Below are positions 37,418 to 64,000 of a DNA stretch of 64,000 nucleotides, in pieces. The translations under genes were made by a program, and so were the position numbers. Source of the DNA: Anaerolineae bacterium (GTDB lineage: Bacteria; Chloroflexota; Anaerolineae; CG2-30-64-16). Positions within the stretch are counted from its first letter, which is position 1, and each line of letters starts with the position of its first letter. The notes beneath the pieces were generated by a model. That model saw only the letters and a list, made by a program, of their open reading frames with translations, was not told where the DNA came from and did no database searches. The stretch is from NCBI GenBank assembly GCA_040772005.1, contig JAXGYZ010000003.1, positions 130,131 through 194,130 on the forward strand, in the 5' to 3' direction.

Positions 37418-38608
37418 CTACGGCCGCACCAGGTACAGGTTGATCCGCCCCCCGAAATCCGACGCATACAGAATACGCGAGCCGTCCCAGCTCCAGGTGG
37501 GATGGCAGTGCGCGCTCTGCGTGTGCCACGAGGTCCGGTGGTGGCACAGGACGACCGGACGGGTGGCGTCGCCCGTGATGTCGATCAGCACGAGGTCGTC
37601 CACGTCGTCGCCCACCAGGCAGGTGTGGTCGGGGTTGGCATGGTAGTGGTTGCAGTAGTAGGGCATGTCGATGCGCCGCACCACATTGCCGTTCCGGTCC
37701 GCCAGGCCGACGAACGGCGTCATCGCGTTCTCGTTGACCTGCACATCGGTGACGACGGCCTGCGTGCGGGCCGACGTGATGGTGCCGTCGTGGCCCGGCC
37801 CGCGGTTGTCGAAGAAGATGTAGCCGTCGTTCGTCCAGAACTCGTGTCCCACCGAGTCCTCCGCAGTCTGGCGGAAGCAGGGCTTGGCCTCGCGCGCTAC
37901 GAAGTCCAGCAGCCAGATGCGCTGGGTGACCAGGTTCCACGGGCCCTCGTGGCAGAACGTGCCGAGCGTGCTGTCATCGGGGCAGAACTGGAAATGGCCG
38001 ACCTGGTGCGTGTCCTTGAACACATCGTACCAGCCTGAGCCGTCCAGGTGCGCGACTGTCACCCGGCCGTCCTTCACCCGGTAGAACCGTTCCTCGAATC
38101 CCGTGTAATTCGGCCCATCCTGCACGTGCACATCTTCGTTGCGGCAGAACGCGATATAGCGGCGGTTGGCTGCGATGGATGGCGCGCCGATGGTGTAGTT
38201 GCCGCCGTCCTCGTAGAGGATCGTAGTCTCGCCCGTTTCCGTGTCCAGCTTCTTGAGCGTGTCCTTGCCGATGCGGTAGACCACGATGCGGCTGTCGGGC
38301 GTCTTGGTCACGCTGCTCACGCCGCTGCCGCGACCGTTCTCCTCCGCCGGCTCGTCGGTGAGTTGGGTCATCACGCCGGTGCGCAGGTCCATGCGGAACA
38401 GGTTGTAGCAGGGGTGCTCGTGCGGCGCGCGATCCTCGCCGGCGGCCCGGTCGGAAAGGAAGATGATCTCGTCGCGCTGCGCATCGAACGAGTTCTCGGT
38501 GAAATACAGGTGATAGTTGTTGCCCCTAGCGGTGAGCTGTTGGATCTCACGGCCGGTCTTGGGATCGTTGAATGTGCGGATTTCGGAAGGCCAGGTTCGA
38601 CCGATCAT
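37418..38608 (-). CDS. ogl: Oligogalacturonide lyase (Ogl, polysaccharide lyase family 22)
   Basis: 396 aa. The TolB-like beta-propeller carries PL22-conserved blocks (FCHEGPWNLV..RIWLLD, HEFW, ...SWHTQSAHCHPTWSWDGSRILYASD) that match enterobacterial Ogl. Confidence 0.8.
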   Translation of the reverse strand: MIGRTWPSEIRTFNDPKTGREIQQLTARGNNYHLYFTENSFDAQRDEIIFLSDRAAGEDRAPHEHPCYNLFRMDLRTGVMTQLTDEPAEENGRGSGVSSVTKTPDSRIVVYRIGKDTLKKLDTETGETTILYEDGGNYTIGAPSIAANRRYIAFCRNEDVHVQDGPNYTGFEERFYRVKDGRVTVAHLDGSGWYDVFKDTHQVGHFQFCPDDSTLGTFCHEGPWNLVTQRIWLLDFVAREAKPCFRQTAEDSVGHEFWTNDGYIFFDNRGPGHDGTITSARTQAVVTDVQVNENAMTPFVGLADRNGNVVRRIDMPYYCNHYHANPDHTCLVGDDVDDLVLIDITGDATRPVVLCHHRTSWHTQSAHCHPTWSWDGSRILYASDFGGRINLYLVRP

Positions 38609-38633
38609 CGATGATTACCTCGTGGCAATGTTG

Positions 38634-38969
38634 TCACCCTGCGACAAAGTCCTGGCGCATGGGCGTGAAGGCGTCCAGCAGCACCGTCGGTGCATAGGTC
38701 TTGATGTAGTGCTTGACGTCGGACGGCACGTAGTAGCTGCCGCCCTTGTGTAGGCGCACGGGTTCGTGCCCGGCCATGCAGAAGTCGATCTCGCCCTCGA
38801 CCACATAGCCGACCTGCTCGTGCGGATGGCTGTGCTCCCAGGAGGCCTTGCCCGCCTCAAACCTGAACTCGACCAGCATCAACCCCGCGCCGTAGCTCAG
38901 CACGCGGCGTTGGGCGCCATCCGGGGTGGTGACGGCGGGCTCATGCTCGGCATCGGCGATCAGTTTCAT
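38634..38969 (-). CDS. Small cupin protein, KdgF-like (pectin-degradation accessory cupin)
   Basis: 111 aa after trimming ORF 38634..40097 to ATG 38967-38969 (RBS GAGGGAG). Cupin motifs G(x)5HxH...E and G...H (WEHSHPHEQVGYVVEGE...PSDVKH). Immediately upstream of ogl, as in kdgF-ogl pairs. Confidence 0.6.
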   Translation of the reverse strand: MKLIADAEHEPAVTTPDGAQRRVLSYGAGLMLVEFRFEAGKASWEHSHPHEQVGYVVEGEIDFCMAGHEPVRLHKGGSYYVPSDVKHYIKTYAPTVLLDAFTPMRQDFVAG

Positions 38970-38991
38970 GTGTGGACTCCCTCGTGCTGTT

Positions 38992-39018
38992 GGTGTATAA
39001 TGTGCGTCATCATACACC
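38992..39018. promoter_or_regulatory. Palindrome GGTGTAT-N13-ATACACC overlapping a TATAAT hexamer in the divergent kdgF-ogl / hybrid-kinase promoter region
   Basis: GGTGTATAATGTGCGTCATCATACACC. Candidate operator/-10 region. No experimental support. Confidence 0.3.
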
Positions 39019-39047
39019 TGGAAGTCTGGCGGAGACAAACGCCGGTC

Positions 39048-42000
39048 ATGAGCCAACTGAAGACTCAACGCCCGCGGGCAAGGCGCCCGCGCGTCGGTTA
39101 CATCACCCCGAGAATCAGCGACCACAACGGGCTGGCTATCTGGAGCGGGATGCTGGAGACGGCCCGGTTGCATGGCGCGGATGTGCTGTGCTTTGCCGGC
39201 GGCGAGGTCAAGCATCCGGAAGGCGCAGCCGGCCGCGCCAACGCGATCTACGACCTGGTCGACCGGGCCAGCCTCGACGGCCTGGTGGTGTGGGGTTCCT
39301 CCCTCGGTTACTACGCCGGTCCTGAAGCCACTTACGAATTCTGCCGCCAGTTTGGGCCCCTGCCGCTCGTCAGCATCGGCGTCGCGCTGCCGGGCATCCC
39401 CGGCGTCGTCCTGGACAGCTACGGTGGCGAGCGCGCGCTCATGGCCCACCTCATCGAAGTCCACGGCCGCCGCCGGTTGGCCTTCATTCGCGGCCCCGAA
39501 GGCCACCGCGAGGCGCGCGAGCGCTACCGCGCATATCGCGACGCGCTGGCAGAATACGACCTGCCCTTCGACCCCGCGCTGGTCTCCCCGCCGTACCTCT
39601 GGATTCAAGCCGACGGCATCGAGATGAACTCGAACGGCGCGGAGGCGGTGCGCCTGTTCGTGGAGGAGCGCCGGGTCGAGTTCGATGCGCTGGTGTCGAC
39701 CAGCGACACTTTCATGCTGGGCGCGCTGCCCGCACTCCTGGAACGCGGGATTCGCGTGCCGGAGGATGTCTCCGTCGTCGGCTTCGATGACAAGCCCGCC
39801 ACCCGCCTCCTTTCCCCCGCCCTGACCACCGTCCAGATTCGCATGCGCGAGCGCGGCCGCCAGGCCCTTGAGCTCCTGCTCGCGCGCTTGAACGGCGAGG
39901 ACATTCCGGCTGAGGTCCTGCAGCCCGCGCGCCTGGTGATCCGGCGTTCGTGCGGCTGCTCGGATGCCGTTGAGGGCCGCGGGCAGGCGGCCGGTTTGCC
40001 CGCCGGTGAGCACGCCGAGGGTCTCGACGCGCTGACCGGCGAGCGTCGCGCGGCCGCGCTCGCGGTCCTGGCACAGCCGCTGGAAGCGGTGGACCAACCG
40101 GCCGCGCAGGCTGCGCCCCTGCTCGATGCATTCCTCGCAGAATTACAGGGCGAGCCCTCAGGCCTCTTCTTGCCGGCGTGGGATGCTCTCCTGGCGCACA
40201 CCGAGGATTCCGAGCGCGAGGTGTGGGACTGGCAGGAGGTCCTCCTGGCGCTGCGCGAGCAGGTGCTGCCGTATCTGACCGCTGACCCGGTCCGGCTGCG
40301 GCAGGCGGAAGACCTCTGGCATCACGCGCGTTCGCATGTCGGGGAACGTGCCTGGCGCGTGCAGGCGCGCGCGGGCCACTACGCCGGCCAGCAGTCCGAC
40401 CGGCTCTATGCCCTCAGCCGGTCGTTGGCCCTGGCCGCGGACGTCCCCGAGCTGATGGATATCCTCGCGCGCATGCTGCCCGAACTGAATATCGCTTCCT
40501 GCCATGTGGCCCTGTACGAGGACCCGGACAACCCGGCGGGTGCGTGCCGGCTGGTGCTGGCCTACGATGAGCGCGGGCGGGCCAACCTGCCGCCGGAGGG
40601 CGTGCAGTGGTCCGCGCCGGTGCTGGCGTCGGGCGGCGCATTCGGGCAGACCGCGTCCCGCCAGAGCATCGTGGTCGAGCCGCTGTACTACCGGGACGAG
40701 CCGCTCGGCTTCATCATGCTGGACGGCAGCCGGAGCGAGGGCCAGGTCTACCGCGTCATCCAGGAGCAGGTGAGCAGCGCGCTCAAGAGCGTGCGGCTGC
40801 TGGAGGAGAACCGGCGGCTGTATCTGGCCGCGCTGGATGGGCAGCAGGCTGCGCAGGATCGGCAGCGCCTGGCCGAAGAAGCCAATCGTCTGAAGAGCCG
40901 TTTCCTCTCGATGGTGAGCCACGAGCTGCGTACGCCCCTGATCCTGCTGGAGGGACTGAGCGAGATGATGCTGCGCGAGGGGAACGGCGACCGGCCGCCG
41001 CTGCCGGCCTCGTACCGGCAGGACCTCGCGCGCATCCGCGCCACCTCGCAGCAGCTCAGCGGGCTGGTGCGCGACGTGCTCGACCTCTCGCGCAGCCAGA
41101 TGGGGCAGTTGCGGCTGGCCGTCACGCCGGTGGACCTGGCCAGCGTGTTGCAGCCGGCGCTGCTCATGGGTGAACAGATGGCGTTCGGCAAGGGCCTGGA
41201 CTGGCATGTGGAGATTGCGCCGGGCCTGCCCCTGGTCAACGGCGATGCGGCCCGGCTGCGGGAGGTGACGCTCAATCTCATCGCCAACGCAGTCAAGTTC
41301 ACCGCGCGCGGGGAAGTGCGCGTGCGCATCGAAGCGTCCGACGGCACGGCCACCGTTTCTGTCAGCGATACAGGCCTCGGCGTGCCGCGCGACGAGCAGC
41401 AGGCCATCTTCGATGAGTTCCGCCAGTCCGAACGCACGGCCACGCGCGGCTTCGGCGGGCTGGGGGTGGGGTTGGCTATCTGCCGCCAGATCATCCAACT
41501 GCACGGTGGGTCCATCGGCGTGCATTCGTCCGGCCAGGAAGAAGGCGGCTCGCGCTTCTACTTCACCCTGCCGGCGCTGCACGCGAGCGCCGGCGTAGAA
41601 CCGGCGGAGACGGCGGCCTGGGATGGCAGCACGGTGGTGCTTCTGGTCGAGCAGGCGGACAACGCCGCGCTGCTGCGCTCCCACCTGGAACAGCAGGGTT
41701 ACGCCGTCGACGTACTGGCCGCTGCTGAGGCCGGCGACTGGCTGGCCCGCCTCAGCGCCACCCCGCCGGGCGCTGTGATTCTGGACCTCCAGCCGGCGTG
41801 GGAGTATGGCTGGCGGCTGGTGGACGCGCTGCGACACAACCAGACCACACAGGGCGTGCCCATCCTGCTCTATTCGCTGCTGGCTGGGCGTGACGAGGGC
41901 GCAGTGCTGGCCGTGGACTACCTGGCGAAGCCCATGGGCGCGGCCGCGCTGACCCAGGCGCTGCAGAACCTCGGTGTGGCGACCTCGCAGCCAGCGGAGA

Positions 42001-42740
42001 ATGCGGCCATCCTGGTCGTGGACGACGACCCGGAGATTCGGGCCCTGCACGGCGACCTGGTCCGCACCCATTTCCCCAACTGCCGGATTCTGCTGGCCGC
42101 GAACGGGCGGCAGGCGTTGGAGCTGCTCGATGGCGGCGCACGCCCGTTGTTCGTCCTCCTGGACCTCATGATGCCGGAGCTGGATGGCGTCGGCGTGCTT
42201 GAGGCGATGCAGCGCAGTGCGCAGTTGCGGGACATTCCCGTCATCGTGCTGACGGCCCAGTGCCTGTCGGATGAAGACCTGGCCCGCCTGAATCGCGGGG
42301 TGGGCGCGATCCTGCAGAAGGGCGTCTTCTCCACGGACGAGACGCTGGCCCACATTGAGCGGGCGCTGGCGCGCAACCGGCGGCTGGGCAGCGAGTCGCA
42401 ACGGCTGGTGCGCAAGGCGATGGCCTATATGCACACCCATTACGCGCAGGACCTGACGCGCAGCCAGCTCGCGCGGAACGTGGGCCTGAGCGAGCGCCAC
42501 CTGGCACGCTGCTTTGCTGCTGAGGTGGGGCTTTCGCCCATGGATTACCTCAACCGCTACCGTATCGCGCAGGCGCGGCGCCTGCTTGATGAGAGCGACG
42601 CCGGCATCGCGCAGGTGATGGAGGCTGTTGGCTTCGGCGACAGCAGCTACTTCGCCCGCATCTTCCGCCGCGAGACCGGCATGTCACCCCGCGCCTATCG
42701 CGGCCGCAAGGACTCTACCGGTCTTCCCCGCTCCCAGTGA
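39048..42740 (+). CDS. Soluble hybrid sensor histidine kinase/response regulator: N-terminal LacI-type periplasmic-binding-fold (PBP1) sugar-sensor domain without HTH, central sensor region, HisKA + HATPase_c, two REC domains, C-terminal AraC-type HTH
   Basis: ORF 38766..42740 trimmed to ATG 39048 (MSQLKTQRP...; GGAG upstream). Features in N- to C-terminal order:
- PBP1/LacI ligand-binding signature (VGYITPRISDH...VVGFDD).
- H-box SHELRTPL.
- G1/G2 boxes (GLGVPRDEQQAIFDEF...GFGGLGVGLAI).
- Two REC (ILVVDDDPEI..., FVLLDLMMPELDG).
- AraC HTH at the end.
No TM segment detected. Confidence 0.8.
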   Translation: MSQLKTQRPRARRPRVGYITPRISDHNGLAIWSGMLETARLHGADVLCFAGGEVKHPEGAAGRANAIYDLVDRASLDGLVVWGSSLGYYAGPEATYEFCRQFGPLPLVSIGVALPGIPGVVLDSYGGERALMAHLIEVHGRRRLAFIRGPEGHREARERYRAYRDALAEYDLPFDPALVSPPYLWIQADGIEMNSNGAEAVRLFVEERRVEFDALVSTSDTFMLGALPALLERGIRVPEDVSVVGFDDKPATRLLSPALTTVQIRMRERGRQALELLLARLNGEDIPAEVLQPARLVIRRSCGCSDAVEGRGQAAGLPAGEHAEGLDALTGERRAAALAVLAQPLEAVDQPAAQAAPLLDAFLAELQGEPSGLFLPAWDALLAHTEDSEREVWDWQEVLLALREQVLPYLTADPVRLRQAEDLWHHARSHVGERAWRVQARAGHYAGQQSDRLYALSRSLALAADVPELMDILARMLPELNIASCHVALYEDPDNPAGACRLVLAYDERGRANLPPEGVQWSAPVLASGGAFGQTASRQSIVVEPLYYRDEPLGFIMLDGSRSEGQVYRVIQEQVSSALKSVRLLEENRRLYLAALDGQQAAQDRQRLAEEANRLKSRFLSMVSHELRTPLILLEGLSEMMLREGNGDRPPLPASYRQDLARIRATSQQLSGLVRDVLDLSRSQMGQLRLAVTPVDLASVLQPALLMGEQMAFGKGLDWHVEIAPGLPLVNGDAARLREVTLNLIANAVKFTARGEVRVRIEASDGTATVSVSDTGLGVPRDEQQAIFDEFRQSERTATRGFGGLGVGLAICRQIIQLHGGSIGVHSSGQEEGGSRFYFTLPALHASAGVEPAETAAWDGSTVVLLVEQADNAALLRSHLEQQGYAVDVLAAAEAGDWLARLSATPPGAVILDLQPAWEYGWRLVDALRHNQTTQGVPILLYSLLAGRDEGAVLAVDYLAKPMGAAALTQALQNLGVATSQPAENAAILVVDDDPEIRALHGDLVRTHFPNCRILLAANGRQALELLDGGARPLFVLLDLMMPELDGVGVLEAMQRSAQLRDIPVIVLTAQCLSDEDLARLNRGVGAILQKGVFSTDETLAHIERALARNRRLGSESQRLVRKAMAYMHTHYAQDLTRSQLARNVGLSERHLARCFAAEVGLSPMDYLNRYRIAQARRLLDESDAGIAQVMEAVGFGDSSYFARIFRRETGMSPRAYRGRKDSTGLPRSQ

Positions 42741-42846: not shown

Positions 42847-43050
42847 TCCTCTTCTCAATCACGGCCCCACAATTTGACCTAATTGTATTGAAAGAAGTCC
42901 CAATCGAACAAGACACGGCCCGTCCTCGGGGAGTATCATAAGCATGCGCCCCCATGGTGTGCGCTACGCTGCCAGTATTTCCTTCTATCTATGCGGCCAC
43001 CCAAACGCGATGTTGTGCTCCCAGTGCCGTGGCAGGCGAGGAAGAACCCG

Positions 43051-43506
43051 ATGACGCAGGCTGTCACTCCAGAGACCGTGGTGATGGCAAAGAGCGCGTT
43101 GATCGCCGTCGAGGATCCGAACATCCTCTATCTGCTCCAGCGTTACGCGGAGGAGAGCGGCTTTGAGACGGCCACTGCGCACGCGAGCATGGAAGTCCTT
43201 GGCCGGGCCACGCACCTGCACCCGGCCTTCATCATTCTGGATGGCGCGCTGCCCGAAACTACCGGCCGGAAGCTGCTGTCCCGCCTACAGGCGCACGCCG
43301 ACACCTGCACCATTCCGGTCATTCTCTATATCAGCCCGGACGACCCGGCCGCCCCATGGACGGCAGGCGCCGCCGGGTGCCTGCCTAAATCGGTCAAGTA
43401 CGCGGATTTCCTGACCATGCTGGCGCACATCGGCGTGTTGCATGGCAACCATGTGAGCAGCGGCTGCGTGGCAGACGACGCAGTCACCGCCGCCCCTGAC
43501 ATTTGA
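43051..43506 (+). CDS. Stand-alone receiver-domain (CheY-like) response regulator
   Basis: REC fold with acidic pocket and phospho-acceptor ([11 protein letters not shown]...). Start is ambiguous (ATG at 43051 or 43084). No output domain. Confidence 0.55.
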
Positions 43507-43513
43507 GAACAGG

Positions 43514-44560
43514 ATGCGTCTCATGTCCGAGCAACTGAGCGAGCGCCCCAAGCTCCTTGAGGTCGTTGACCTGAAGAAGCACTTCCCCATCAAGCGCGGG
43601 TTCCTTTTCGCGAAGGAAGTCGGCGCGGTCAAAGCCGTGGACGGCGTGAGCCTCTTCATCCGCGAAGGCGAGACGCTGGGGCTGGTCGGCGAGAGCGGCT
43701 GCGGGAAGACCACGATTGGCCGGCTCATTCTGCGCGCCTATAACCCGACCGCCGGCCAGATCTGGTTCCAGGATCGCCGTATGGGGCGGGTGGATGTCGC
43801 CCGGATGAATGAGGGCGAACTGCGCGAGCTGCGCCAGAACATGCAGCTCATCTTCCAGGACCCCTACTCCTCGCTCAATCCGCGCATGACGCTGCTCGAA
43901 ATCGTCGGCGAGCCGCTGCGCAACCATGGCATTGCCAAAGGCAGCGAACTCAAGGAGCGCGTCGCCGAGCTGCTCAAGGTCGTCGGCCTGCGGCCCGAGT
44001 ACATGACCCGCTATCCGCACGCGTTCAGCGGCGGGCAGCGCCAGCGCATCGGCGTCGCGCGGGCACTGGCGCTGCATCCCCAGCTCGTCGTCTGCGACGA
44101 GCCTGTGTCGGCCCTGGACGTCTCCGTCCAGGCGCAGATTCTCAACCTGCTGCAGGGCCTGCAGGGCGACTTCGGCCTGACGTACCTGTTCATCTCGCAT
44201 GACCTGAGCGTGGTCGAGCACATCAGCGACCGCGTCGCCGTGATGTACGTGGGGAAACTTGTGGAGAGTGCCACCACGACCGAACTCTTCCTGGCCCCCC
44301 GTCATCCTTACACCGAGGCTCTGCTCTCCTCGGTGCCCAAGCCGGACCCCCGTGTCCGCACCGAGGCTGTGCCATTGACGGGTGAAGTAGCCGACCCGGC
44401 ACATCCACCCAGCGGCTGCTATTTCCATCCGCGCTGCAGGTATTGCATCGACCGGTGTACCACCGAGGAACCGGTGCTGCGGGAAATATCACCCGATCAC
44501 TTTGTCAGTTGTCACCGGGCCGAAGAGCTGCGCCTGCTCGGTGTGGCTGGCCTGGCGTAG
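43514..44560 (+). CDS. Opp/Dpp-family ABC transporter ATP-binding protein (OppF/DppF-like)
   Basis: Walker [10 protein letters not shown], signature [15 protein letters not shown], Walker [13 protein letters not shown], and the C-terminal oligopeptide-transporter extension with Cys-rich tail. Confidence 0.85.
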
Positions 44561-44623
44561 GCGGGGCTGCCTGCAACGCACGCTGTTGGCGCAACGTTTC
44601 ATTTTCAAGGAGGAAGTTAGGCA

Positions 44624-57510: not shown

Positions 57511-58038
57511 ATGCGATTACGCGCGCTGCTGTTCGACCTCGGTGACACGATCATGGTCGAGGAAACCGAGGTCAAGGATCCGGACGAAACCACGCTGCGG
57601 GCCGAACTGGTGCCCGGCATGGCGGAGGTCCTGCACGCGCTCCGAGCTGACGGTCACCGGCTCGCGCTGGTGGCCGACAGCCGGCCGGAGACCCCGCCGA
57701 ACGTGCTCCGCCAGCACGGGCTGTGCGCCCTGTTCGAGTACCTGGCTATCTCGGAAATCATCGGCGCGACCAAGCCGGACCCGCGCATCTTCCGCGCGGC
57801 GCTCGACGCGCTGGGCATCCCGAAGGCGGACTACGGCCGGGTGGTCATGGTGGGCAACAACCTGGAGCGCGACGTCGCCGGGGCCAACCGGCTCGGCCTG
57901 ATCCCGGTGTTCTATCATCTCAACGAACGGCGGCGCACGCAGCCGCTCACGCCCGACGAGATGCCGCAGTACACGGTCACGACTCCAGGGGAACTGTACG
58001 ACCTGGTGCGGCGGCTGGAGAAGGAGCCTGCAACATGA
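57511..58038 (+). CDS. HAD-superfamily hydrolase (subfamily IA-like phosphatase)
   Basis: Motif I DLGDT at the N-terminus (ALLFDLGDTIM), and motifs III/IV (…VMVGNNLERDV…). 175 aa after trimming to ATG 57511. Confidence 0.7.
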   Translation: MRLRALLFDLGDTIMVEETEVKDPDETTLRAELVPGMAEVLHALRADGHRLALVADSRPETPPNVLRQHGLCALFEYLAISEIIGATKPDPRIFRAALDALGIPKADYGRVVMVGNNLERDVAGANRLGLIPVFYHLNERRRTQPLTPDEMPQYTVTTPGELYDLVRRLEKEPAT

Positions 58039-58349
58039 GCTTTGTGATACGCCAGACGAAGGGCATCGACAAGTGCCTGGCCGAGGCGGGGCTGGACCCC
58101 GAGCGGCTGCGCATGCACGTCTCGGAGATCGCGCCGGGCACGCGCGCCCACGCGCCGCACGTGCATGACGCGGTCGAGGCGTTCTACGTGCTGGAAGGGC
58201 AGGGCACGATCGAGGTCGGGGACGAACGATATGCGGTCGGCCCGAACGAGGTCGTCATCCTCGATGCGCGCGTCCCGCACGGCCTGGAGAACACCGGCAC
58301 GACGCCCATGCGCTATCTGGTTGTCATAACGGCGAATCTGCCTTCGTAG
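58035..58349 (+). CDS. Small cupin protein (KdgF-like), second copy
   Basis: 104 aa. RBS AAGGAG. ATGA overlap with the HAD gene. Cupin motifs (HVHDAVEAFYVLEGQG...PHGLEN). Confidence 0.6.
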   Translation: MSFVIRQTKGIDKCLAEAGLDPERLRMHVSEIAPGTRAHAPHVHDAVEAFYVLEGQGTIEVGDERYAVGPNEVVILDARVPHGLENTGTTPMRYLVVITANLPS

Positions 58350-58381: not shown

Positions 58382-59497
58382 GTGCGACCTTTAGCAGACG
58401 ATGTGCCCGCCGATAGCGCGCTCTGGTCGGTGCGCATGGCCGATGCCACGCTGGCGCGCTACCCTGTCTCCCGCATGCGCTGGCACTACGAGGACGGTTT
58501 CCTCATGCACGCGGTCGCGCAGGTGGCGCAGCGGACGGGGCAGCCGTGCTATGGGCAGGCGGTCAGGGAGTACGTGGACCGTTTCGTGCAAGGCGACGGC
58601 AGCATCGCGACTTACTGGCTGGCAGACTACAACCTCGACCAGATTGCGCCCGGCCGGCTGCTCTTCCCGCTGCACGAGGCCGGCGGCGACGCGCGTTTCG
58701 GGCAGGCGATTGCGCTCCTGCGCGAGCAGCTTGCGCGGCAGCCTCGCACGCGCGCGGGCGGCTTCTGGCACAAGCTCATCTATCCGTACCAGATGTGGCT
58801 CGACGGCATCTACATGGCCGGGCCGTTCTATGCGCAGTATGCGGCCGCCTTCGGAGACGTTGCGGCCTTCGATGACGCGGTCCACCAGATCGTGACGCTG
58901 GAGCAGCATGCGCGCGATCCCGAGACGGGTCTGCTGTATCACGCGTGGGATGAGAGCTGCCAGCAGCGTTGGGCCGCGCCGGGGACGGGCTGTTCGCCGC
59001 ACTTCTGGGGCCGCGCGATCGGCTGGTTCGGGATGGGCATCGTGGAGGTGCTGGACGTACTGCCGCCTGACCACCCGCAACGGCCCGTGCTGATCGGCAT
59101 CCTCCAGCGCGCACTCGCCGCGGTGTACGCGGTGCGGGACCCCGACTGCGGCTTGTGGCGGCAGGTGCTGGACCAGGGCGGCCGGGCCGGCAATTACCTG
59201 GAGGCCTCGGCCGCGTGCATGTACATCTACACGATGGCGAAGGGCGTCCGCCAGGGCTACCTGCCTGCCGACTGGCTGGCCGTGGCCCGCGTGAGCTTCG
59301 ACCAGGTGCTCGCGCACTTCATCCATGTGGACCCGGCCGGCCACGTCAGCCTGCACTGGACGTGCGGCGCGGCGGGGCTGGGCGGCACGCCATATCGCGA
59401 TGGCAGCTACGAGTACTACGTGACCGAACGAGTGGTGACGAACGATCCCAAGGGCATCGCGGCCTTCATCCTGGCCGCGCTGGAACTGGGACGCTGA
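58382..59497 (+). CDS. Glycoside hydrolase family 105/88 unsaturated uronyl hydrolase (unsaturated rhamnogalacturonyl/galacturonyl hydrolase, YteR/YesR-like)
   Basis: 371 aa. The alpha6/alpha6 barrel carries conserved blocks (WHYEDGF, QMWLDGIYM, HAWDES, the WGRAIGW motif). GTG start with RBS GGAGGTGG. Confidence 0.8.
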   Translation: MRPLADDVPADSALWSVRMADATLARYPVSRMRWHYEDGFLMHAVAQVAQRTGQPCYGQAVREYVDRFVQGDGSIATYWLADYNLDQIAPGRLLFPLHEAGGDARFGQAIALLREQLARQPRTRAGGFWHKLIYPYQMWLDGIYMAGPFYAQYAAAFGDVAAFDDAVHQIVTLEQHARDPETGLLYHAWDESCQQRWAAPGTGCSPHFWGRAIGWFGMGIVEVLDVLPPDHPQRPVLIGILQRALAAVYAVRDPDCGLWRQVLDQGGRAGNYLEASAACMYIYTMAKGVRQGYLPADWLAVARVSFDQVLAHFIHVDPAGHVSLHWTCGAAGLGGTPYRDGSYEYYVTERVVTNDPKGIAAFILAALELGR

Positions 59498-59518
59498 AAC
59501 GACATCGAGGAGGCAACA

Positions 59519-60333
59519 TGACCTATTTTACAGCCGTGCCCGCGCATGAGGGCATCAACCATCTGCCGGCGAACCCGTGCAAGCTGCTGGACTTCCAGTT
59601 GCTGATCCTGCCGGCCGGGCAGAGCTACAGCGCCGCAACCGGCGACCGCGAGGTGCTGGCGGTCATTCTCGGCGGCAAGGGCACGTTCCGAGTCGGGGGC
59701 CAGGAGTTTGCCAATGTCGGCGGCCGGCCCAACGTCTTTGCGGGCAAGCCGCACGCGGTCTACATGCCGTGCGGCGCGGACTTCACCGTCACTGCGCAGG
59801 GCCGGCTGGAGGTGGGGCTTTGCAGTGCGCCCAGCGAGCTGGCGACTGCACCCTATGTCATCAGCCCGGAGCAGGTCACGAGCGGGATGTGGGGCGCGGC
59901 AAACTTCTCGCGCAATTTCCATCAGATTCTCACGCTGGCGGGCCAGCCCAACCTTCCAGCGCGGCGGCTCATCGTGGGCGAGACCTACACCCCGTCGGGC
60001 AACTGGAGCACCTATCCGCCGCACAAGCACGAGGTCGATGACCTGCCGCGCGAGGCGTATCACGAGGAGATGTACTTCTTCAAGGTGACGCCGGCGGACG
60101 GGTTCGGCATGGTGCGCTACTACAACGACGAGGTCGACACGGGCTACATCGTCAAGGACAACACCATCCTGATGGCCCCGAACGGCTATCACACGACCAA
60201 CAGCGCGCCCGGCTACCAGAGCTACTTCCTCTGGATGCTGGCGGGCAACCAGCGCGTGCAGGCGACGGTGGACGATCCTGCGCTGGGCTGGGTCTCGCGC
60301 ACAGTGCCGATGCTGAAGGCGTTGGGGCACTAA
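59519..60333 (+). CDS. KduI/IolB-family cupin isomerase (5-dehydro-4-deoxy-D-glucuronate isomerase-like)
   Basis: 271 aa. A bicupin with the family motif NWS(T/S)YPPHKH(E/D)VDD and a second HxH-type site. Its position beside kduD favours a KduI-like role, although the motif is closest to IolB. Confidence 0.7.
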
Positions 60334-60610: not shown

Positions 60611-61375
60611 ATGCAAGATCTCTTTCGGCTCGATGGCCGCGTCGCGCTGGTGACGGGCGCATCGCAGGGGTTGGGGCAGGGGATGGCGCTGGCGCTCGCC
60701 AGGGCGGGGGCGGACATCGCCGGGCTGGACCGCTGCACCAGCGACGCGACGGCAGAACAGGTGCAGGCAGTGGGCCGCCGCTACATGCAGGTCTGCTGCG
60801 ACCTGCTGGACGCGTCCGTCGCGGACCTGCAGGCCGTCGTCGGCCAGGTCGTGGCCGAGCTGGGGCGGCTGGATATCCTGGTCAATAACGCGGGCATCAT
60901 CCGCCGCGGCCCCGCGCTGGATTTCAGCGAGGCCGACTGGGACGATGTGCTGCAAATCAACCTGAAGGCGGTCTTTTTCCTCGCGCAGGCCGCCGCGCGT
61001 GCGATGGTGGCCCAGGGCTCGGGCGGGAAGATCATCAACATTGCGTCGATGCTCTCGTTCCAGGGCGGCATCAACGTCGTGTCCTACACCGCGGCCAAGA
61101 GCGGCGTGGCGGGGGTGACGCACGCGCTCGCCAACGAATGGGCGAAGCACGGCATCAACGTCAACGCGATCGCGCCGGGCTACATGGCGACGGACAACAC
61201 CGCGCCGCTGCGCGCCGACCCGGTGCGCACTGCGGCCATCCTGGAGCGCATCCCGCTGGGGCGCTGGGGCACCCCGGCTGACCTGGACGGCGTGGTGGTG
61301 TTCCTGGCGTCGGCCGCGTCGGACTATATGTGCGGTGCGATCGTACCTGTGGACGGCGGCTGGCTGGCGCGGTAG
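60611..61375 (+). CDS. kduD: 2-dehydro-3-deoxy-D-gluconate 5-dehydrogenase (KduD, SDR family)
   Basis: 254 aa. TGASQGLGQGMALALA and the catalytic YxxxK (YTAAKSGVAG) closely parallel E. coli KduD (VTGCDTGLGQGMALGLA). Confidence 0.8.
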   Translation: MQDLFRLDGRVALVTGASQGLGQGMALALARAGADIAGLDRCTSDATAEQVQAVGRRYMQVCCDLLDASVADLQAVVGQVVAELGRLDILVNNAGIIRRGPALDFSEADWDDVLQINLKAVFFLAQAAARAMVAQGSGGKIINIASMLSFQGGINVVSYTAAKSGVAGVTHALANEWAKHGINVNAIAPGYMATDNTAPLRADPVRTAAILERIPLGRWGTPADLDGVVVFLASAASDYMCGAIVPVDGGWLAR

Positions 61376-61846: not shown

Positions 61847-61878
61847 GGGAAGGCTGTGTGTAGAGGCCGTGCCAGGCT

Positions 61879-63018
61879 TTACCGGATATCGGGTGTGGGA
61901 TAACACCCGTAACGCTCCACCAGTTCGACCACCCGCGCGACGCGGCGGCGCTGGCCGTCCGGCGGCACCTGGTCGGCGACGCCCAGGACAAACCGTGGCT
62001 CGGTCACCATGAGCGCCAGCATCTCGCGGACATGGCGCTCGAACTCCTCGTCGCTGATGAGGTCGGTGAAGTAGATGCCCGGCAGCCCACCCCACAGGAT
62101 GCATGGCGGCACGCCGGGCTCCTGCACCGGCTCCACCCGCTCGACCATCTCAGCCAGCGTGATGTCGCCGACGGGCTTCGGCGTCACGGCCTCGATGACG
62201 CGGAAGCCCGTGCTTGCCAGCTCGCGAATCAGCCCTCGCGTCGTGCCGTCCAGGTGGACGAACGAGAACTTGCCCGCCTCGCGGATGCGCCGGTTCCACT
62301 TCTCCTCGTAGCCGCGCACGTAACGCTCGAAGAACCGCTTACCCACCACCTCGGAGGACAGATTCTCAGGGATCATCAGGCACTCGGCGGGTGAGGCGAG
62401 CGCAATTTCCGCGGCCTCGTTCGATTTCTGCTCGATCAGCGCCAGCGTCGCCTCGAACTCGTCGCGCGCGTCCATGTACAGGCCGATGACACTCTCGATG
62501 CCGGCCAACAGCACGGTCATTTGCATGAACGGGGTCTTGGGCAGGTAACACAGCACGACGCCGAGGTCCTGCACTAGCGGGTGCCGCCGCGCGGCTTCCG
62601 CATAATCCGGCTCGAAGGTCGCATGCTCGAAGATGTAGCACAGGACGGCCAGGTCCTCCCGCGTCTTGACGAGCCGCTGCGTGTAGGCGTGCGTGTACGA
62701 TTCCGGCAGGTAGACTTGCACCTCCGTGATCGAGCCGGCCGGCGTGTGATACGTCCGCCGGAATTCACGGCCCTCATGCTGCTCTTCGATCCGCACGGAG
62801 CCGTCCAGCACGCGACGGAACGGCTCGTAGCCCTGGAGGTAAAAGCCGACGCCCAGCTCGCGGTGCCAGTCGTAGTACGCGGGACTGCGTTGGAAGCCGG
62901 GCGGCACTTCCCCGCGCACCTCCAGTGCGTGCGCCCAGTAGGTCAGGTCGCCCAGCCATGGCACGCGGTCCGGAGTGCGCCCCTGCAGGATGGTGAGGAC
63001 TCGTTCGCGGTCGTTCAT
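61879..63018 (-). CDS. Uroporphyrinogen decarboxylase (URO-D)/MtaA-like family protein, second paralog
   Basis: ORF trimmed to ATG 63016-63018 (MNDRERVLTILQGRTPDRVPWLGDLTYW...), a typical URO-D-family N-terminus. 379 aa. Immediately downstream of sugar ABC permease genes. Confidence 0.55.
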   Translation of the reverse strand: MNDRERVLTILQGRTPDRVPWLGDLTYWAHALEVRGEVPPGFQRSPAYYDWHRELGVGFYLQGYEPFRRVLDGSVRIEEQHEGREFRRTYHTPAGSITEVQVYLPESYTHAYTQRLVKTREDLAVLCYIFEHATFEPDYAEAARRHPLVQDLGVVLCYLPKTPFMQMTVLLAGIESVIGLYMDARDEFEATLALIEQKSNEAAEIALASPAECLMIPENLSSEVVGKRFFERYVRGYEEKWNRRIREAGKFSFVHLDGTTRGLIRELASTGFRVIEAVTPKPVGDITLAEMVERVEPVQEPGVPPCILWGGLPGIYFTDLISDEEFERHVREMLALMVTEPRFVLGVADQVPPDGQRRRVARVVELVERYGCYPTPDIR

Positions 63019-63026
63019 GCGCACCC

Positions 63027-63923
63027 TTACGCTTTCATGCCTGTGAGCGCGATGCCCTGGATGAAGTACTTCTGGGTCAGGAAGAAGACGACTAGGATGG
63101 GCGTGATCATCATCGTCGAGGCGGCCATCAGCAGGCCCCACATCGTGCGACGCTCGAACATGAACGCCTGCAGGCCCAGCGACAGGGTGTAGTTCTGCCG
63201 GTTGTTCAGGAAGATCAGCGGGCCGGTGAAGTCGTTCCAGGCGGCCATAAAGCTGAAGATGGCGACGGTCGCCAAGGCGGGCTTGGCCAGCGGCAGGATA
63301 ATTGTCCACCAGATGTTCAGGCGGTTGGCCCCGTCCACAATCGCGGCCTCTTCGAGTTCCATCGGGATCGTCATGAAGAACTGGCGCAGCATGAAGATGT
63401 AGAATGGCGAGCCGAGCAGCGCCGGCACGGTCAACGGCAGGAATGTGTCGATCCAGTTGATCTTGGCGAACAGGATGTAGAGCGGGACGAGCGTCACGAT
63501 GCTCGGGATCATCATCTGGCTGACCATGACCATGAAGATCGTGTCGCGGCCCGGCGCACGCACGCGCGAAAAGCCGTACGCGGCTAGCGAACAGGTGACG
63601 ACCGCGCCGAAAACCTGCGCGCTCGCGATGACCATCGTGTTAAGGAAGTACTTGTGCAGGGGCGCGTAGATGAAGACCGCCGGGTAGTTATCCCAGATCA
63701 TCGGATTCGGGATCCAGACGGGCGGCCAAGCGAAGATCTGCCGGTCGGCTTTGAGCGACGTACTGACCATCCAGATGAAAGGCAGCGCGAACACGGCCGC
63801 ACCGACAAGCAGCACGCCGTGGACGCCGAAGCGCCCGAACAACCAGCGAATCCGCTTGGCCCACGTCGTCCCATAATGGACCATCCTATCGCCCTGGCTG
63901 GACGTTTGAGGAGTGACAGTCAT
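63027..63923 (-). CDS. Carbohydrate ABC transporter permease (CUT1 family, MalG/UgpE-like)
   Basis: 298 aa, 6 TM, with the EAA-loop region (…AAIVDGANRLNIWWTIILPLAKPAL…). Strong RBS GGAGG 7 nt upstream of ATG 63921-63923. Confidence 0.8.
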   Translation of the reverse strand: MTVTPQTSSQGDRMVHYGTTWAKRIRWLFGRFGVHGVLLVGAAVFALPFIWMVSTSLKADRQIFAWPPVWIPNPMIWDNYPAVFIYAPLHKYFLNTMVIASAQVFGAVVTCSLAAYGFSRVRAPGRDTIFMVMVSQMMIPSIVTLVPLYILFAKINWIDTFLPLTVPALLGSPFYIFMLRQFFMTIPMELEEAAIVDGANRLNIWWTIILPLAKPALATVAIFSFMAAWNDFTGPLIFLNNRQNYTLSLGLQAFMFERRTMWGLLMAASTMMITPILVVFFLTQKYFIQGIALTGMKA

Positions 63924-63926
63924 CGG

Positions 63927-64000
63927 TTACCTCCGCTCCGCTTCGTAGTAGACCCATCGGTTCGCCAGCCTAAACTGCGCGATGGTCAACGCCAGCACGA
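63927..64000 (-). CDS. 3' end of an upstream ABC sugar permease gene (MalF/UgpA-like), partial
   Basis: Minus-strand frame reads ...VLALTIAQFRLANRWVYYEAERR* with stop at 63927-63929, 3 nt before the next gene's RBS. The gene runs off the window. Confidence 0.4.
   Translation of the reverse strand, partial: VLALTIAQFRLANRWVYYEAERR

Follow-up and report, generated by a model that had tools for sequence, protein, structure and literature searches.

A probable uronate-oligosaccharide utilisation locus of Chloroflexota with a peptide-type importer, a radical SAM enzyme and a candidate lyase-fold protein

From position 37418 to its right edge, the window (the whole 64,000-nucleotide stretch analysed, from a Chloroflexota, Anaerolineales-like genome) carries a locus that is best explained, as a whole, by the cytoplasmic utilisation of uronic-acid-containing oligosaccharides (probability about 0.72). 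The substrate here is most likely pectin fragments, of homogalacturonan or RG-I, because the accessory set comprises PL22, a YteR-type GH105 and KduI/KduD. The point of interest of the locus is the trio of importer, radical SAM enzyme and lyase-fold protein; sugar import through a peptide-type transporter already has precedent.

Genes were called from GC3, translations and family or PDB searches. An earlier note on this DNA had set the left boundary at 37418, which is correct, the genes upstream being unrelated housekeeping genes; the right end continues past the window edge. The note had also described an almost complete pathway around the transporter. Most of its genes are real, but the description misses the radical SAM gene and the 857-residue protein U857, the tightest partners of the transporter. 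The genes left out span ~10.7 kb, ~40% of the locus, and encode a hybrid sensor, a REC protein, the radical SAM enzyme, U857 and two URO-D/MtaA-like proteins.

The importer and its binding protein

A complete Opp/PepT-type importer occupies 43514–50130 on the plus strand, and every component of the peptide-type ABC system with a Tat-exported family-5 substrate-binding protein (SBP), as proposed earlier, was found with Pfam and NCBIfam. It comprises an OppF/DppF-type ATPase (43514–44560; PF00005 and PF08352, with the oligo_HPY C-terminal Cys-rich extension and NCBIfam Dpp/OppF models at 380–402 bits), a family-5 (cluster C) SBP lipoprotein (44624–46690; PF00496, 197.8 bits), an OppB-type permease (46827–47816; PF00528 and PF19300, five TM-like windows), an OppC-type permease (47818–48999; PF00528 and PF12911, Opp4C model 265 bits) and an OppD/DppD-type ATPase (49090–50130; PF00005 and PF08352, NCBIfam). 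The SBP begins with a twin-arginine signal (RREFL; TIGR01409, 18.4 bits against a cut-off of 16.7), followed by a lipobox (AAAC) and a linker of three PAAEPTA repeats.

The SBP does not group with peptide- or nickel-binding proteins but lies nearest to 5IPW and SPH1118. Its best solved relative is the T. maritima 'OppA' 5IPW (374 bits, 1.2e-110), a structure without known ligand, followed by the pectin-binding SPH1118 (221 bits, 1.9e-64, full length) and an alpha-galactoside binder (79 bits). Peptide and nickel SBPs in the PDB reach at most ~70 bits over partial lengths, and the named peptide/nickel models of NCBIfam score 5–10 times under their cut-offs. SPH1118 is a cluster-C SBP, encoded next to Opp-type ABC genes, with binding shown for pectin and for oligogalacturonides and none for peptides; it prefers polygalacturonate and barely binds yeast extract or tryptone, which are peptide mixtures, and the cleft of 5IPW is negatively charged (PMC9314435). 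Sequence comparison establishes the SBP of the window as a member of the SPH1118/5IPW clade. Judged by these similarities and by the gene neighbourhood, the importer probably carries uronate oligosaccharides rather than peptides, and specificity for pectin is plausible.

The earlier reading of the system as an oligogalacturonide importer stands in so far as a sugar, not a peptide, importer is meant. Oligogalacturonide specificity is not established, because few SPH1118 contacts are kept, because the SBP subgroup of the window (65–71% identity) accompanies GH67, GH106 or GH105 in related loci, because the GH4 enzyme resembles AglA/TM0752 far more than LplD, and because KdgK, KdgA and UxaABC are missing from the window. 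Two of the ten alignable ligand contacts of SPH1118 are identical in the window SBP and three are conservative; K132, R363, R533 and D572 are kept at contact positions, while R438 is replaced by Q and R496 by E. Loci with GH28, PL22, KduI and KduD carry another SBP subgroup (54–58% identity).

The radical SAM enzyme, U857 and their linkage to the importer

Genes for a 610-aa B12-binding radical SAM enzyme (50151–51983), U857 (52032–54605) and URO-D/MtaA-superfamily protein 1 (54609–55730), all on the plus strand, follow the OppD gene at spacings of 21, 49 and 4 bp, and no terminator-like site was found between these four genes. U857 belongs to a large unnamed family, and sequence searches against Pfam, NCBIfam and the PDB gave no match for it. 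Its AF2 model (pLDDT 82.5) has two N-terminal beta-sandwiches, the first resembling the GH2 sugar-binding domain (GH2-N-like), an alpha-helical toroid at ~318–584 and a C-terminal beta-sandwich at 591–857. For the C-terminal 548 residues, Foldseek returned dermatan-sulfate epimerase 1 (DS-epimerase 6HZN) as the top match, together with PL15 3A0O, PL8 1CB8 and PL33 8R71, at probabilities of 0.99–1.0; four of the five matches at E ≤ 0.001 are lyases (PL8, PL15, PL33). By its predicted fold, U857 is a candidate for a new family of cytoplasmic lyases or epimerases acting on uronates. GH88/105 enzymes require an unsaturated end made by a lyase, and a distant relative (P0361) joins the U857 core to GH88/105 in one protein, so a lyase fits best. 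The family comprises 3082 clusters at 50% identity, and many His, Tyr, Arg, Asn, Asp, Glu and Trp residues are shared between orthologues and paralogues (30–36% identity). Three highly conserved loops (410–421, 531–537 and 658–676) are poorly modelled by AF2.

A U857 profile search of genome contigs gave 460 relatives, and the best 80 loci are all from Chloroflexota. Among 43 Chloroflexota loci whose upstream flank spans 9 kb or more, the SBP family is present in 34, the radical SAM gene in 27 and both in 25; in most loci, and across all SBP subgroups, the radical SAM gene directly neighbours that of U857 on one side or the other. From an independent start with five SBP homologues, a radical SAM gene was found with four and a Pfam-less protein of ~860 aa with three. 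Neighbours in related loci belong to PL22, GH28, GH105, GH67, PcRGLX-like (PL26-like) and cupin families, with GH106 plus LacI, and CE15, as further examples. Glucuronate-type enzymes are also paired with the transporter subgroup in relatives. Peptidases never stand beside the transporter across more than 40 related loci, where uronate-glycan enzymes are found instead. KduI and KduD occur with the module in only 2–5 of 82 loci; the module itself is therefore not pectin-specific.

The radical SAM enzyme matches PF04055 (54.2 bits) and, slightly below cut-off, PF02310 (31.8 bits). All named NCBIfam models lie far under their cut-offs, the best similarities being to the class-B methylases ApyD, rSAM_ocin_1 and MCR Gln methyltransferase. 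The C340-x4-C345-x2-C348 and GGPH motifs are invariant in 41 sequences, and the family profile detects OxsB (1.7e-14) and AprD4 (1e-5) in the PDB, enzymes with sugar or nucleoside substrates. The homologues listed all derive from Chloroflexota or metagenomes, and the family is uncharacterised. Protein 1 of the URO-D/MtaA superfamily (PF01208, 53.6 bits; MtaA-type NCBIfam models only 17.8 bits) gave no solved relative; protein 2 (61879–63018, minus strand, start confirmed; PF01208, 40 bits; MtaA models 21–25 bits) lies downstream of the CUT1 permease gene. A UROD-GH4-HAD block is kept in loci L004, L005, L026 and L082, UROD and GH4 are also adjacent in L016, and in L016, L030 and L085 the direct neighbour of the radical SAM gene is UROD.

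The same conserved module includes the radical SAM enzyme and, in some of the loci, also the URO-D/MtaA-like proteins. To our knowledge, the canonical uronate pathway requires no radical or cobalamin chemistry. Our best guess is that the imported glycan, not a peptide, is the target of these proteins: a substituent in the way of elimination might, for instance, be removed or rearranged by radical chemistry.

Catabolic enzymes, regulators and a proposed route

The PL22, GH4, HAD, GH105, KduI/IolB-family and KduD genes named earlier were all recovered, and none of the enzymes of the locus has a signal peptide or TM segment. The PL22 oligogalacturonate-lyase-like beta-propeller (37418–38608, minus strand), which is cytoplasmic, matches PF14583 (65.9 bits, cut-off 30) and Ogl 3PE7 over its full length (5e-16, residues 3–394); orthologues with 70–75% identity occur in L013, L016, L017 and L048. 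The remaining enzymes are encoded on the plus strand. The GH4 NAD/Mn-type glycosidase (55963–57351; PF02056 and PF11975) scores 376 bits with AglA (1OBB), 266 bits with the alpha-glucuronidase TM0752 (1VJT) and 61 bits with the alpha-galacturonidase LplD (3FEF); on this evidence it is alpha-glucosidase/alpha-glucuronidase-like. GH4 occurs in 23–24 of 82 related loci. The HAD-IA phosphatase-like hydrolase (57511–58038; PF00702 and PF13419) has NCBIfam subfamily matches under cut-offs. Of the two KdgF-like cupins claimed, only a single small Cupin_2 gene exists (58035–58349; 104-aa monocupin, 72.3 bits, 155 bits with its own family HMM), its start overlapping the HAD stop codon. An HMM of its relatives, searched without any filter through all six reading frames of the entire window, gave no second copy, and no solved KdgF structure is among the listed PDB matches at E ≤ 0.01. 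Cupin relatives are present in 17 loci, directly beside U857 in 12.

GH105 (58382–59497; PF07470, 334.8 bits) matches 4WU0 (331 bits, 6.6e-98) and YteR 1NC5 (265 bits, 8e-78) and is, by similarity, a YteR-type unsaturated rhamnogalacturonyl/galacturonyl hydrolase. PL22 Ogl and YteR-type GH105 typify the breakdown of homogalacturonan and RG-I. The bicupin isomerase (59518–60333, start confirmed; PF04962, 244.9 bits) is of the IolB type (TIGR04378, 217.9 bits against 205; KduI model PRK00924, 19 bits) and probably converts 5-keto-4-deoxyuronate to 2,5-diketo-3-deoxygluconate. For KduD (60611–61375), the 2-dehydro-3-deoxy-D-gluconate 5-dehydrogenase, profile TIGR01832 secures the assignment at equivalog level (382.2 bits, cut-off 338.85). 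A CUT1-type permease is also encoded (63027–63923, minus strand; PF00528, 69.8 bits; MalG 121 bits, UgpE 118 bits; six TM-like windows); it is MalG-like, and the remainder of this second sugar transporter lies past the window end. No secreted pectinase, CE8 or CE12 was found within the window.

Upstream of the importer, and divergent from the PL22 gene, lies a 1230-aa hybrid sensor-regulator (39048–42740, plus strand; open from 38766, with the likely start MSQLK at 39048) with a LacI-type PBP, HisKA/HATPase, two REC domains and an AraC HTH. It has no convincing TM segment, and the LacI-type PBP fold is cytoplasmic here. LacI-type sugar-binding domains are present in regulators of the window and of related loci, and a sensor homologue lies ahead of this transporter in L002, L042, L048, L082 and L084. 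A stand-alone REC protein follows (42991–43506, plus strand, or from an internal Met at 43084; PF00072, 40.6 bits), kept at the same position in L001, L002, L011, L022, L042, L048 and L082. Sensor and receiver may together control the operon.

In the route we propose, the importer would take up acidic oligosaccharides produced extracellularly by other enzymes or organisms. U857 would then attack uronate residues in the cytoplasm, most likely by beta-elimination to a 4,5-unsaturated end, and PL22, GH105 and GH4 would complete depolymerisation. The small cupin and the IolB-type isomerase, with putative roles, and KduD would convert unsaturated uronate to KDG.

Competing readings of substrate and chemistry

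It is possible, though rather unlikely, that the importer takes up glucuronate oligosaccharides (4-O-methyl-glucuronoxylan aldouronates, Rha-GlcA of arabinogalactan or gum, or bacterial acidic exopolysaccharide), with GH4 as an alpha-glucuronidase and U857 acting on GlcA or 4-O-Me-GlcA. In L042, L048 and L082 the SBP subgroup of the window is accompanied by GH67, in L003/L018 by GH106 and a lyxose-isomerase-like cupin; L082 is syntenic (sensor, REC, Opp, U857/rSAM, UROD-GH4-HAD-cupin) yet has GH67. The sequence similarities of GH4 point the same way, as do an SBP homologue adjoining a CE15 glucuronoyl esterase and the T. maritima PepT-type xtp transporter beside the alpha-glucuronidase AguA (PMC3750489). 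GDPD, RidA and amidohydrolase genes in other relatives suggest a bacterial polymer. However, GH67, GH115, xylosidase and xylose genes are absent from the window, which has PL22 and YteR-type GH105 instead, and SPH1118 favours polygalacturonate; pectin fragments are preferred here. As for the transporter, an ordinary peptide/nickel importer, perhaps RiPP-like with the radical SAM enzyme and adjacent to sugar genes by chance, is highly improbable: homologues are auto-annotated as 'peptide/nickel transport system substrate-binding protein', Opp4A and NikA give weak, partial NCBIfam matches, and the best matches of the radical SAM enzyme are RiPP maturases, but the low peptide and nickel scores and the binding behaviour of SPH1118 argue otherwise. 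Moreover, no peptidase is encoded in the locus, more than 40 genomes repeat the linkage to uronate enzymes and sugar-type regulators, and the gaps flanking the radical SAM gene are too small for a precursor-peptide ORF.

A maturase role for the radical SAM enzyme, modifying U857 or a transporter component post-translationally instead of a sugar, is unlikely. Parallels for such a role would be anaerobic sulfatase-maturating enzymes and the B12-radical-SAM methylases that act on methyl-coenzyme M reductase, and it could suit the adjacency to U857 regardless of accessory enzymes, the top similarities to protein- or peptide-modifying methylases and the conserved, poorly modelled U857 loops. Yet no U857 residue is invariant solely in radical-SAM-linked copies, U857 lacks a nearby radical SAM gene in 15 loci with full upstream flank, L001 has the radical SAM gene and no U857 in ~2 kb of contig downstream, and the gene lies between OppF and SBP in L046, L059 and L062; OxsB and AprD4, its nearest relatives of solved structure, use sugar or nucleoside substrates. 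Likewise doubtful is a uronyl C5-epimerase or glycoside hydrolase activity of U857 in place of a lyase activity, as its top Foldseek match, its GH2-like N-terminal domain and the PL22 lyase already in the locus might suggest; the predominance of lyases among the matches, the GH88/105 fusion and the small cupin directly beside U857 argue for a lyase.

Gene content and layout of the locus

The locus (37418 to the end of the window) opens with a PL22 Ogl-like lyase gene on the minus strand, which a divergent intergenic region of 440 bp separates from the gene of a 1230-residue hybrid sensor composed of a LacI-type binding domain, HisKA/HATPase, two REC domains and an AraC HTH. Downstream of the sensor are a stand-alone REC protein and then, in this order, OppF, a family-5 solute-binding protein (SBP, 44624-46690(+)), OppB, OppC and OppD, the importer genes extending over 43514-50130. 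Directly 3' of OppD lies the gene of a 610-residue B12-binding radical SAM protein (50151-51983(+)), followed directly by that of an 857-residue protein without a family match (U857, 52032-54605(+)). Further downstream are a URO-D/MtaA-like protein (URO-D-like 1, 54609-55730(+)), GH4, a HAD hydrolase, a 104-residue cupin, GH105, a KduI/IolB-family isomerase and KduD. Three minus-strand genes close the locus, coding for a small membrane protein, another URO-D-like protein and, extending in the direction of the window end, a CUT1 permease. The earlier note had passed over about 10.7 kb of the locus: the genes of the sensor and the REC protein, the radical SAM gene, U857 and the two URO-D-like genes. 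Because of the high G+C content of the window (62-70%), raw ORF lists were full of shadow ORFs; reading frames were picked by third-position G+C, and each gene was then verified by translation and family search.

The genes are tightly packed, with gaps of 21 bp between OppD and the radical SAM gene, 49 bp between the latter and U857 and 4 bp between U857 and URO-D-like 1, while the HAD and cupin genes overlap. A terminator scan found no terminator-like site between the genes of the OppD/radical SAM/U857/URO-D/HAD/cupin stretch, and the only convincing item of the promoter and terminator scan was one promoter-like site upstream of the REC gene. An Rfam search of the window for a cobalamin riboswitch or other RNA elements gave no match. 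All enzymes of the locus are cytoplasmic, lacking signal peptides and membrane segments, and the SBP is the sole exported protein, with a Tat motif (model above its cut-off) and a lipobox downstream of it. Its residues ~30-60, after the lipobox, form a linker with a threefold PAAEPTA repeat, which is typical for a tethered lipoprotein SBP.

The genes that the earlier note had listed for pectin utilisation are present, subject to two corrections, which concern the number of cupins and the type of the KduI-family isomerase. The alignment of PL22 with the solved Ogl 3PE7 is full-length (5e-16 over residues 3-394) and takes in the Ogl motifs FCHEGP, HEFW and HxHP; PL22 also passes PF14583 with 65.9 bits against a cut-off of 30. 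It is a divergent member, as its paralogues in related loci reach 136 bits. GH105 is of the YteR/YesR type (4WU0 331 bits and 1NC5 265 bits vs 31 bits for a GH88 entry), and KduD passes the equivalog TIGR01832 (382.2 bits vs 338.85). The isomerase belongs to the KduI/IolB family as claimed (Pfam 244.9 bits). It passes the IolB equivalog (217.9 vs 205 bits) and misses the KduI-specific model PRK00924 (19 bits vs 250); a KduI-like role is suggested by the position of its gene between GH105 and KduD. Of the two KdgF-like cupins proposed, a single small cupin was recovered: a family HMM run with all filters off on the six-frame translation of the whole window detected no second copy. Its similarity is to the generic Cupin_2 family, with no KdgF-named entry among its 19 PDB matches at E<=0.01. 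The GH4 assignment held at the level of the family, the best PDB matches being AglA (376 bits) and the alpha-glucuronidase TM0752 (266 bits), followed at a distance by LplD 3FEF (60.8 bits). These scores do not support an LplD-type alpha-galacturonidase, for which LplD or TM0434 would be the nearest characterised enzyme.

The intracellular pectin pathway of enterobacteria and Bacillus (TogMNAB/TogT, Ogl, KdgF, KduI, KduD; YesOPQ-YesR/YteR) is the obvious point of comparison. The window has PL22 Ogl, YteR-type GH105 and KduD in common with it, places a KduI-family isomerase and a small cupin at the expected steps, and likewise relies on cytoplasmic enzymes acting after ABC import. Differences from that pathway are a PepT-type importer in place of a CUT1 or GPH one, an IolB-type isomerase, a cupin whose identity with KdgF is not demonstrable, and the absence of KdgK, KdgA and UxaABC from the window. 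The radical SAM, U857 and URO-D-like genes are additional to it.

The peptide-type importer and its binding protein

The complete Opp/Dpp-type ABC system described in the earlier note was recovered with all five parts of the PepT/Opp-Dpp-Nik family (TC 3.A.1.5). Besides the SBP, there are separate OppB- and OppC-type permeases (PF19300 + PF00528 and PF12911 + PF00528) and two ATPases, each combining PF00005 with PF08352, the oligo_HPY extension. NCBIfam Opp/Dpp models were the top matches for the transporter components. The SBP itself falls into family 5 (SBP_bac_5, cluster C; PF00496 197.8 bits vs a cut-off of 32.4).

Firm grouping of the SBP with peptide or nickel binders would speak against the sugar role that had been proposed. 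Every named peptide, nickel, glutathione and opine NCBIfam model was missed by a wide margin, for example Opp4A (101 bits vs a cut-off of 650), NikA (83.5 vs 393), DppA (41 vs 1005) and OppA (33.5 vs 947). The closest solved relative is the 'OppA' of T. maritima, 5IPW (E 1.2e-110, 374 bits), which is without a known ligand. It is followed by SPH1118 of Sphingomonas A1 (E 1.9e-64, 221 bits), which aligns over its full length (SBP residues 75-641 vs chain 3-570), and by an alpha-galactoside binder (E 2.6e-21). Peptide binders gave weaker E-values than the latter and only partial alignments. A reading of the Opp system as a peptide importer, or as part of a RiPP pathway, was rejected on the missed peptide models and these partial alignments, on the poor binding of peptide mixtures by SPH1118, and on the recurring linkage to uronate enzymes and sugar-type regulators in more than 40 genomes. 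Moreover, the 21-bp and 49-bp gaps flanking the radical SAM gene are too short for a precursor-peptide ORF, and no peptidase is encoded in the locus.

SPH1118 (PDB 7VER) resembles the window SBP in being a cluster-C/family-5 protein of ~69 kDa with Opp-type transporter genes nearby (PMC9314435, PMC7055323). Despite its annotation as an oligopeptide-binding protein, its ligands include polygalacturonate (Kd ~8 uM), GalA and unsaturated trigalacturonate, whereas yeast extract and tryptone are hardly bound (PMC9314435). The two proteins share only about one third of their residues, and a further difference is that SPH1118 works in the periplasm of a diderm, where it has a second role in chemotaxis. 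The available portions of PMC9314435 and PMC7055323 make no mention of a radical SAM or U857-type partner.

The ligand contacts of SPH1118 (N53, R57, E216, R294, N324, R438, R466, D483, R496, E505 and W594) were compared with the SBP. Among the ten alignable contacts, two are identical (R294 = R363, R466 = R533), and both of these arginines are invariant in the family of the window SBP. Three are conservatively replaced (R57 by K132, E216 by D286, E505 by D572) and five are changed (N53 to W, N324 to H, R438 to Q, R496 to E, and D483 to a gap); W594 has no alignable counterpart. Overall, the contact-residue pattern is closer to that of 5IPW than to that of SPH1118. Thus, the sugar-binding relatives speak in favour of the sugar role in the earlier proposal of an oligogalacturonide importer, while the galacturonide substrate is less clear, as half of the alignable SPH1118 contacts are changed.

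The PepT ('EFGKL') systems of Thermotoga maritima offer a second parallel, being, like the importer of the window, peptide-type and five-component, and serving there in the uptake of oligosaccharides. Digalacturonate, however, enters T. maritima through the CUT1-type AguEFG system. Oligosaccharide transport by the PepT family is established in Thermotoga, where xtp adjoins the alpha-glucuronidase AguA and rtp serves rhamnose oligosaccharides (PMC3750489, in the portion available; review PMC13543919). The same portion of PMC3750489 mentions no radical SAM or U857 partner of these systems. Thus, a peptide-type ABC importer for oligosaccharides (Thermotoga) and a cluster-C SBP for pectin (SPH1118) are both already known. 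What appears to be undescribed is that such an importer is conservedly linked with a cobalamin radical SAM enzyme and with a lyase-fold family that is large and has no name.

U857 and the radical SAM enzyme

Sequence searches of U857 against Pfam, NCBIfam and the PDB (profile, E<=10) were all without a family match. Pfam searches of 30 aligned members at E<=5 gave only a weak GH2_N2 match in the N-terminus, and those of ten distant relatives only the GH88 domain of a fusion protein. A search of 1.84 billion representatives placed the relatives of U857 in 3082 clusters; homologues of 57-70% identity come from Anaerolineae, Caldilineae, Roseiflexaceae and Thermoflexales. The full-length AF2 model is confident (pLDDT 82.5, pTM 0.82) and predicts two beta-sandwiches at the N-terminus, a helical domain (~318-584) and a third, C-terminal sandwich. 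In Foldseek, the full-length model picked up only the GH2-N-like first domain (TM ~0.13) and was uninformative on the catalytic part. To overcome this N-terminal dominance, residues 310-857 were re-modelled with lower but usable confidence (pLDDT 73.6, pTM 0.80). The new model matched 6HZN, 3A0O, 1CB8 and 8R71 with probabilities of 0.99-1.0, E-values of 8e-6 to 7e-4 and TM-scores of 0.30-0.37, all of them enzymes abstracting the C5 proton of a uronate.

The predicted fold and domain order of residues 310-857 are those of (alpha/alpha)-toroid plus beta-sandwich lyases and epimerases, a group comprising PL8, PL12, PL15, PL21, PL33 and DS-epi. Its members matched here are the PL15 exo-oligoalginate lyase Atu3025, which is cytoplasmic like U857, the PL8 chondroitinase AC/hyaluronate lyases, PL33 BT4410 and dermatan-sulfate epimerase 1. 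A further shared trait is the co-occurrence with GH88/105. U857 differs from these in its two additional N-terminal beta-sandwich domains, and sequence similarity is undetectable with Pfam lyase models and the PDB profile search, the TM-scores reaching only 0.30-0.37. Based on these predictions, we infer that U857 is a cytoplasmic uronate lyase of a sequence family that is new relative to Pfam, NCBIfam and the PDB. Since dermatan-sulfate epimerase 1 belongs to the same fold group, U857 might act as an epimerase, which we consider less likely. In the distant relative P0361, one of the 3082 clusters, the U857 core is fused to a GH88/105 domain, and GH88/105 enzymes require an unsaturated end made by a lyase. 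Among the residues shared by orthologues and paralogues, His, Tyr, Arg, Asn, Asp, Glu and Trp are numerous; the cysteines are not conserved in this way.

A small membrane protein of ~148 residues is often encoded directly upstream of U857 (cluster c27 in L010, L011, L014 and L040; cluster c19 in L003/L018, L026, L042 and L048). In protein P0215, it is fused, or was merged by the gene caller, to the N-terminus of U857, a hint that U857 could act at the membrane, beside the transporter. Two further Pfam-less, cytoplasmic families recur in these loci, namely c14 (~667 residues; L010, L014, L015, L021, L023, L050) and c26 (~480 residues; L003, L031, L034, L063). When U857 was aligned by hhalign with the unnamed families c14, c26, c11 and c62, only a weak signal to c14 was obtained (probability 27%), located in the helical domain of U857.

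The radical SAM protein matches PF04055 (54.2 bits); PF02310 falls just short of its cut-off in the window copy (31.8 bits vs 32.1) and is recorded for nearly all homologues. Its CX4CX2C motif and the GGPH motif of the B12 domain are invariant, and it belongs to class B. As in other enzymes of this class (OxsB, AprD4-like, TsrM, TokK, BchE, PhpK), an N-terminal B12 Rossmann domain precedes the radical SAM core; its cysteine motif differs from their CX3CX2C. In searches of the PDB with the family profile, OxsB (1.7e-14) was the closest solved relative, AprD4 (1e-5), TsrM and TokK also being among the nearest; OxsB and AprD4 act on sugar or nucleoside substrates. No cut-off was reached for the named class-B subfamilies (RiPP C-methyltransferase, PhpK, BchE, HpnJ, AprD4 and others), the best NCBIfam scores being ApyD (110 bits vs 750), rSAM_ocin_1 (107.5 vs 282) and PhpK (105 vs 600). 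The homologues listed carry generic automatic labels or are unnamed, and those with a named source are Chloroflexota.

In related loci, the radical SAM gene adjoins U857 in either order or lies between OppF and the SBP gene (L046, L059, L062). Its presence with every SBP subgroup argues for a role generic to the module, not bound to one accessory enzyme. The radical SAM gene has a URO-D/MtaA-like gene as its immediate neighbour in L016, L030 and L085, with a 4-bp overlap in the last; in the window, one gene separates the two. The URO-D-like proteins match Pfam URO-D (53.6 and 40 bits), score 18-25 bits vs 235-400 with MtaA models and have no solved relative. MtaA carries an H-x-C zinc-binding motif, at the position of which H-S-D and H-L-D were seen by eye. 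The second URO-D-like gene (61879-63018(-)) lies 8 bp downstream of the CUT1 (MalG-like) permease gene (together 61879-63923(-)), so that URO-D-like proteins accompany both sugar ABC systems of the window. In L002, a PhdYeFM/PIN toxin-antitoxin pair (15919-16633) separates OppD from the radical SAM gene in a locus that is otherwise syntenic.

As a tentative working guess, which we hold at clearly less than even odds, the radical SAM enzyme would carry out radical chemistry on the glycan that has been imported. Its gene is part of a transporter operon for glycan catabolism, a setting for which a literature search found no precedent; nor did that search yield anything relevant on radical SAM/B12 or URO-D-like proteins in the breakdown of glycans or methyl sugars. 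The enzyme might instead be a maturase of U857, its frequent neighbour. This is the more doubtful of the two proposals: residues invariant only in the radical-SAM-linked copies of U857 were looked for and none were found, which is weak evidence against such a role.

A conserved core in Chloroflexota and its possible substrates

A look-up of the exact SBP sequence in public assemblies gave no record. Homologues of the SBP are numerous, and those with a named source among the best 120 are from Anaerolineae. In five of their genomic contexts, the same Opp set is followed by a B12-radical SAM gene in four and accompanied by a Pfam-less protein of ~860 residues in three. The fifth (L084, 8453-13461) contains an orphan SBP homologue (56% identity, without permeases) next to a hybrid sensor, GH88 and a CE15 glucuronoyl esterase, together with a pectate-lyase-like fragment. 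A U857 profile scan with one genome per species identified 460 relatives, and the best 80 loci, all from Chloroflexota, were retained; the window proteins were mapped onto them and all of their ORFs were clustered de novo. Among the 43 loci that extend 9 kb or more upstream of U857, the SBP family is present in 34, the radical SAM gene in 27 and both in 25. These linkage counts define a conserved core of importer, radical SAM gene and U857.

Around this core lies a variable shell of uronate-glycan enzymes. Among 82 loci, neighbours include GH4 (23-24), a small cupin (17, directly adjoining U857 in 12), PL22 of two subtypes (13), a U857 paralogue of 30-36% identity (~11), GDPD/RidA (7-8), a PcRGLX/GH127-like protein (7), GH67 and GH105 (5 each), the UROD-GH4-HAD block (4, with UROD in 6) and GH28 (3). 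GH106 was also seen in a related locus, while KduI and KduD occur in only 2-5 of the 82. The regulators are hybrid LacI-domain sensors or plain LacI repressors. Seven U857 loci (L019, L027, L029, L036, L038, L039 and L057) have GDPD and RidA where others have pectin enzymes, accompanied in some of them by D-threonine-aldolase-like and amidohydrolase genes, which suggests that other members of the U857 family act on acidic polymers decorated with phosphodiesters or amino acids.

If one substrate has to be named for this genome, pectin fragments are the best guess, because PL22, a YteR-type GH105 and KduI/KduD are present. A glucuronate-type substrate is a serious rival. In a UPGMA tree, the window SBP falls into a subgroup of 65-71% identity whose loci carry GH67, GH106 or GH105, while the plainest pectinolytic loci (L016 and L017, with GH28, GH105, PL22 and KduI/KduD) belong to another SBP subgroup of 54-58% identity.

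In the proposed mechanism, the SBP would capture acidic oligosaccharides set free extracellularly and the PepT system would import them, while the hybrid sensor might bind an intracellular sugar and activate the operon. U857, PL22, GH105 and GH4 would then depolymerise the imported oligosaccharides, and the unsaturated uronate could be converted to KDG via the cupin, the IolB-type isomerase and KduD; KdgK and KdgA, the downstream steps, would have to be encoded elsewhere. At a probability of roughly 0.2, the importer, the radical SAM enzyme and U857 constitute an undescribed acidic-glycan route, in which a new PL family is combined with an oxygen-independent radical step on the imported sugar. 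The radical SAM enzyme would act here sometimes together with the MtaA-like protein, for example to strip an O-methyl group or a different blocking substituent from the sugar, or to rearrange or deoxygenate it in the way of AprD4, OxsB or BchE. If this is true, no radical-SAM/B12 step would have been described before in the catabolism of polysaccharides, sulfatase maturation aside.

Digesters, activated sludge, sediments and soils harbour abundant Anaerolineae and Caldilineae. These bacteria are thought to use plant and microbial polymers, yet their glycan-uptake systems carry peptide-transporter annotation. If a clade of 'peptide/nickel' SBPs serves acidic oligosaccharides, thousands of annotations would be corrected and metagenome-based inferences of carbon flow would change. 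Should U857 be a lyase, its more than 3000 sequence clusters would form a new family in CAZy, and the valorisation of pectin, hemicellulose or EPS would gain a new enzyme. Aerobes remove decorations such as methyl ethers with oxygenases, and a radical SAM gene in a sugar-import operon raises the question of how anaerobes handle these and similar decorations.

The genes upstream of 37418 are unrelated to the locus. They include an Mrp/Mbh-type antiporter subunit cluster (Proton_antipo_M, MbhD/E, MnhB) with an FAD oxidoreductase (446-10493(-)) and a nitrogen-assimilation block of P-II (glnB), an ammonium transporter (amtB), Hsp33 and glutamine synthetase (glnA; 25427-29733(-)), beside which lies a GAF histidine kinase (23405-25408). 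A single giant ORF of 2925 residues (12273-21050(-)) with GT2-like, glucoamylase-like and GH94 supersandwich and catalytic domains resembles cyclic beta-1,2-glucan synthase (Cgs/NdvB). Directly left of the locus are two ORFs of 118 and 311 residues (36018-37291(+)) with good GC3 and no Pfam match. Finally, an enolase-superfamily (MR_MLE) protein (29907-31094(+)), which could be a sugar-acid dehydratase, is 27% identical to a family (c17) found beside U857 in Caldilineaceae loci.
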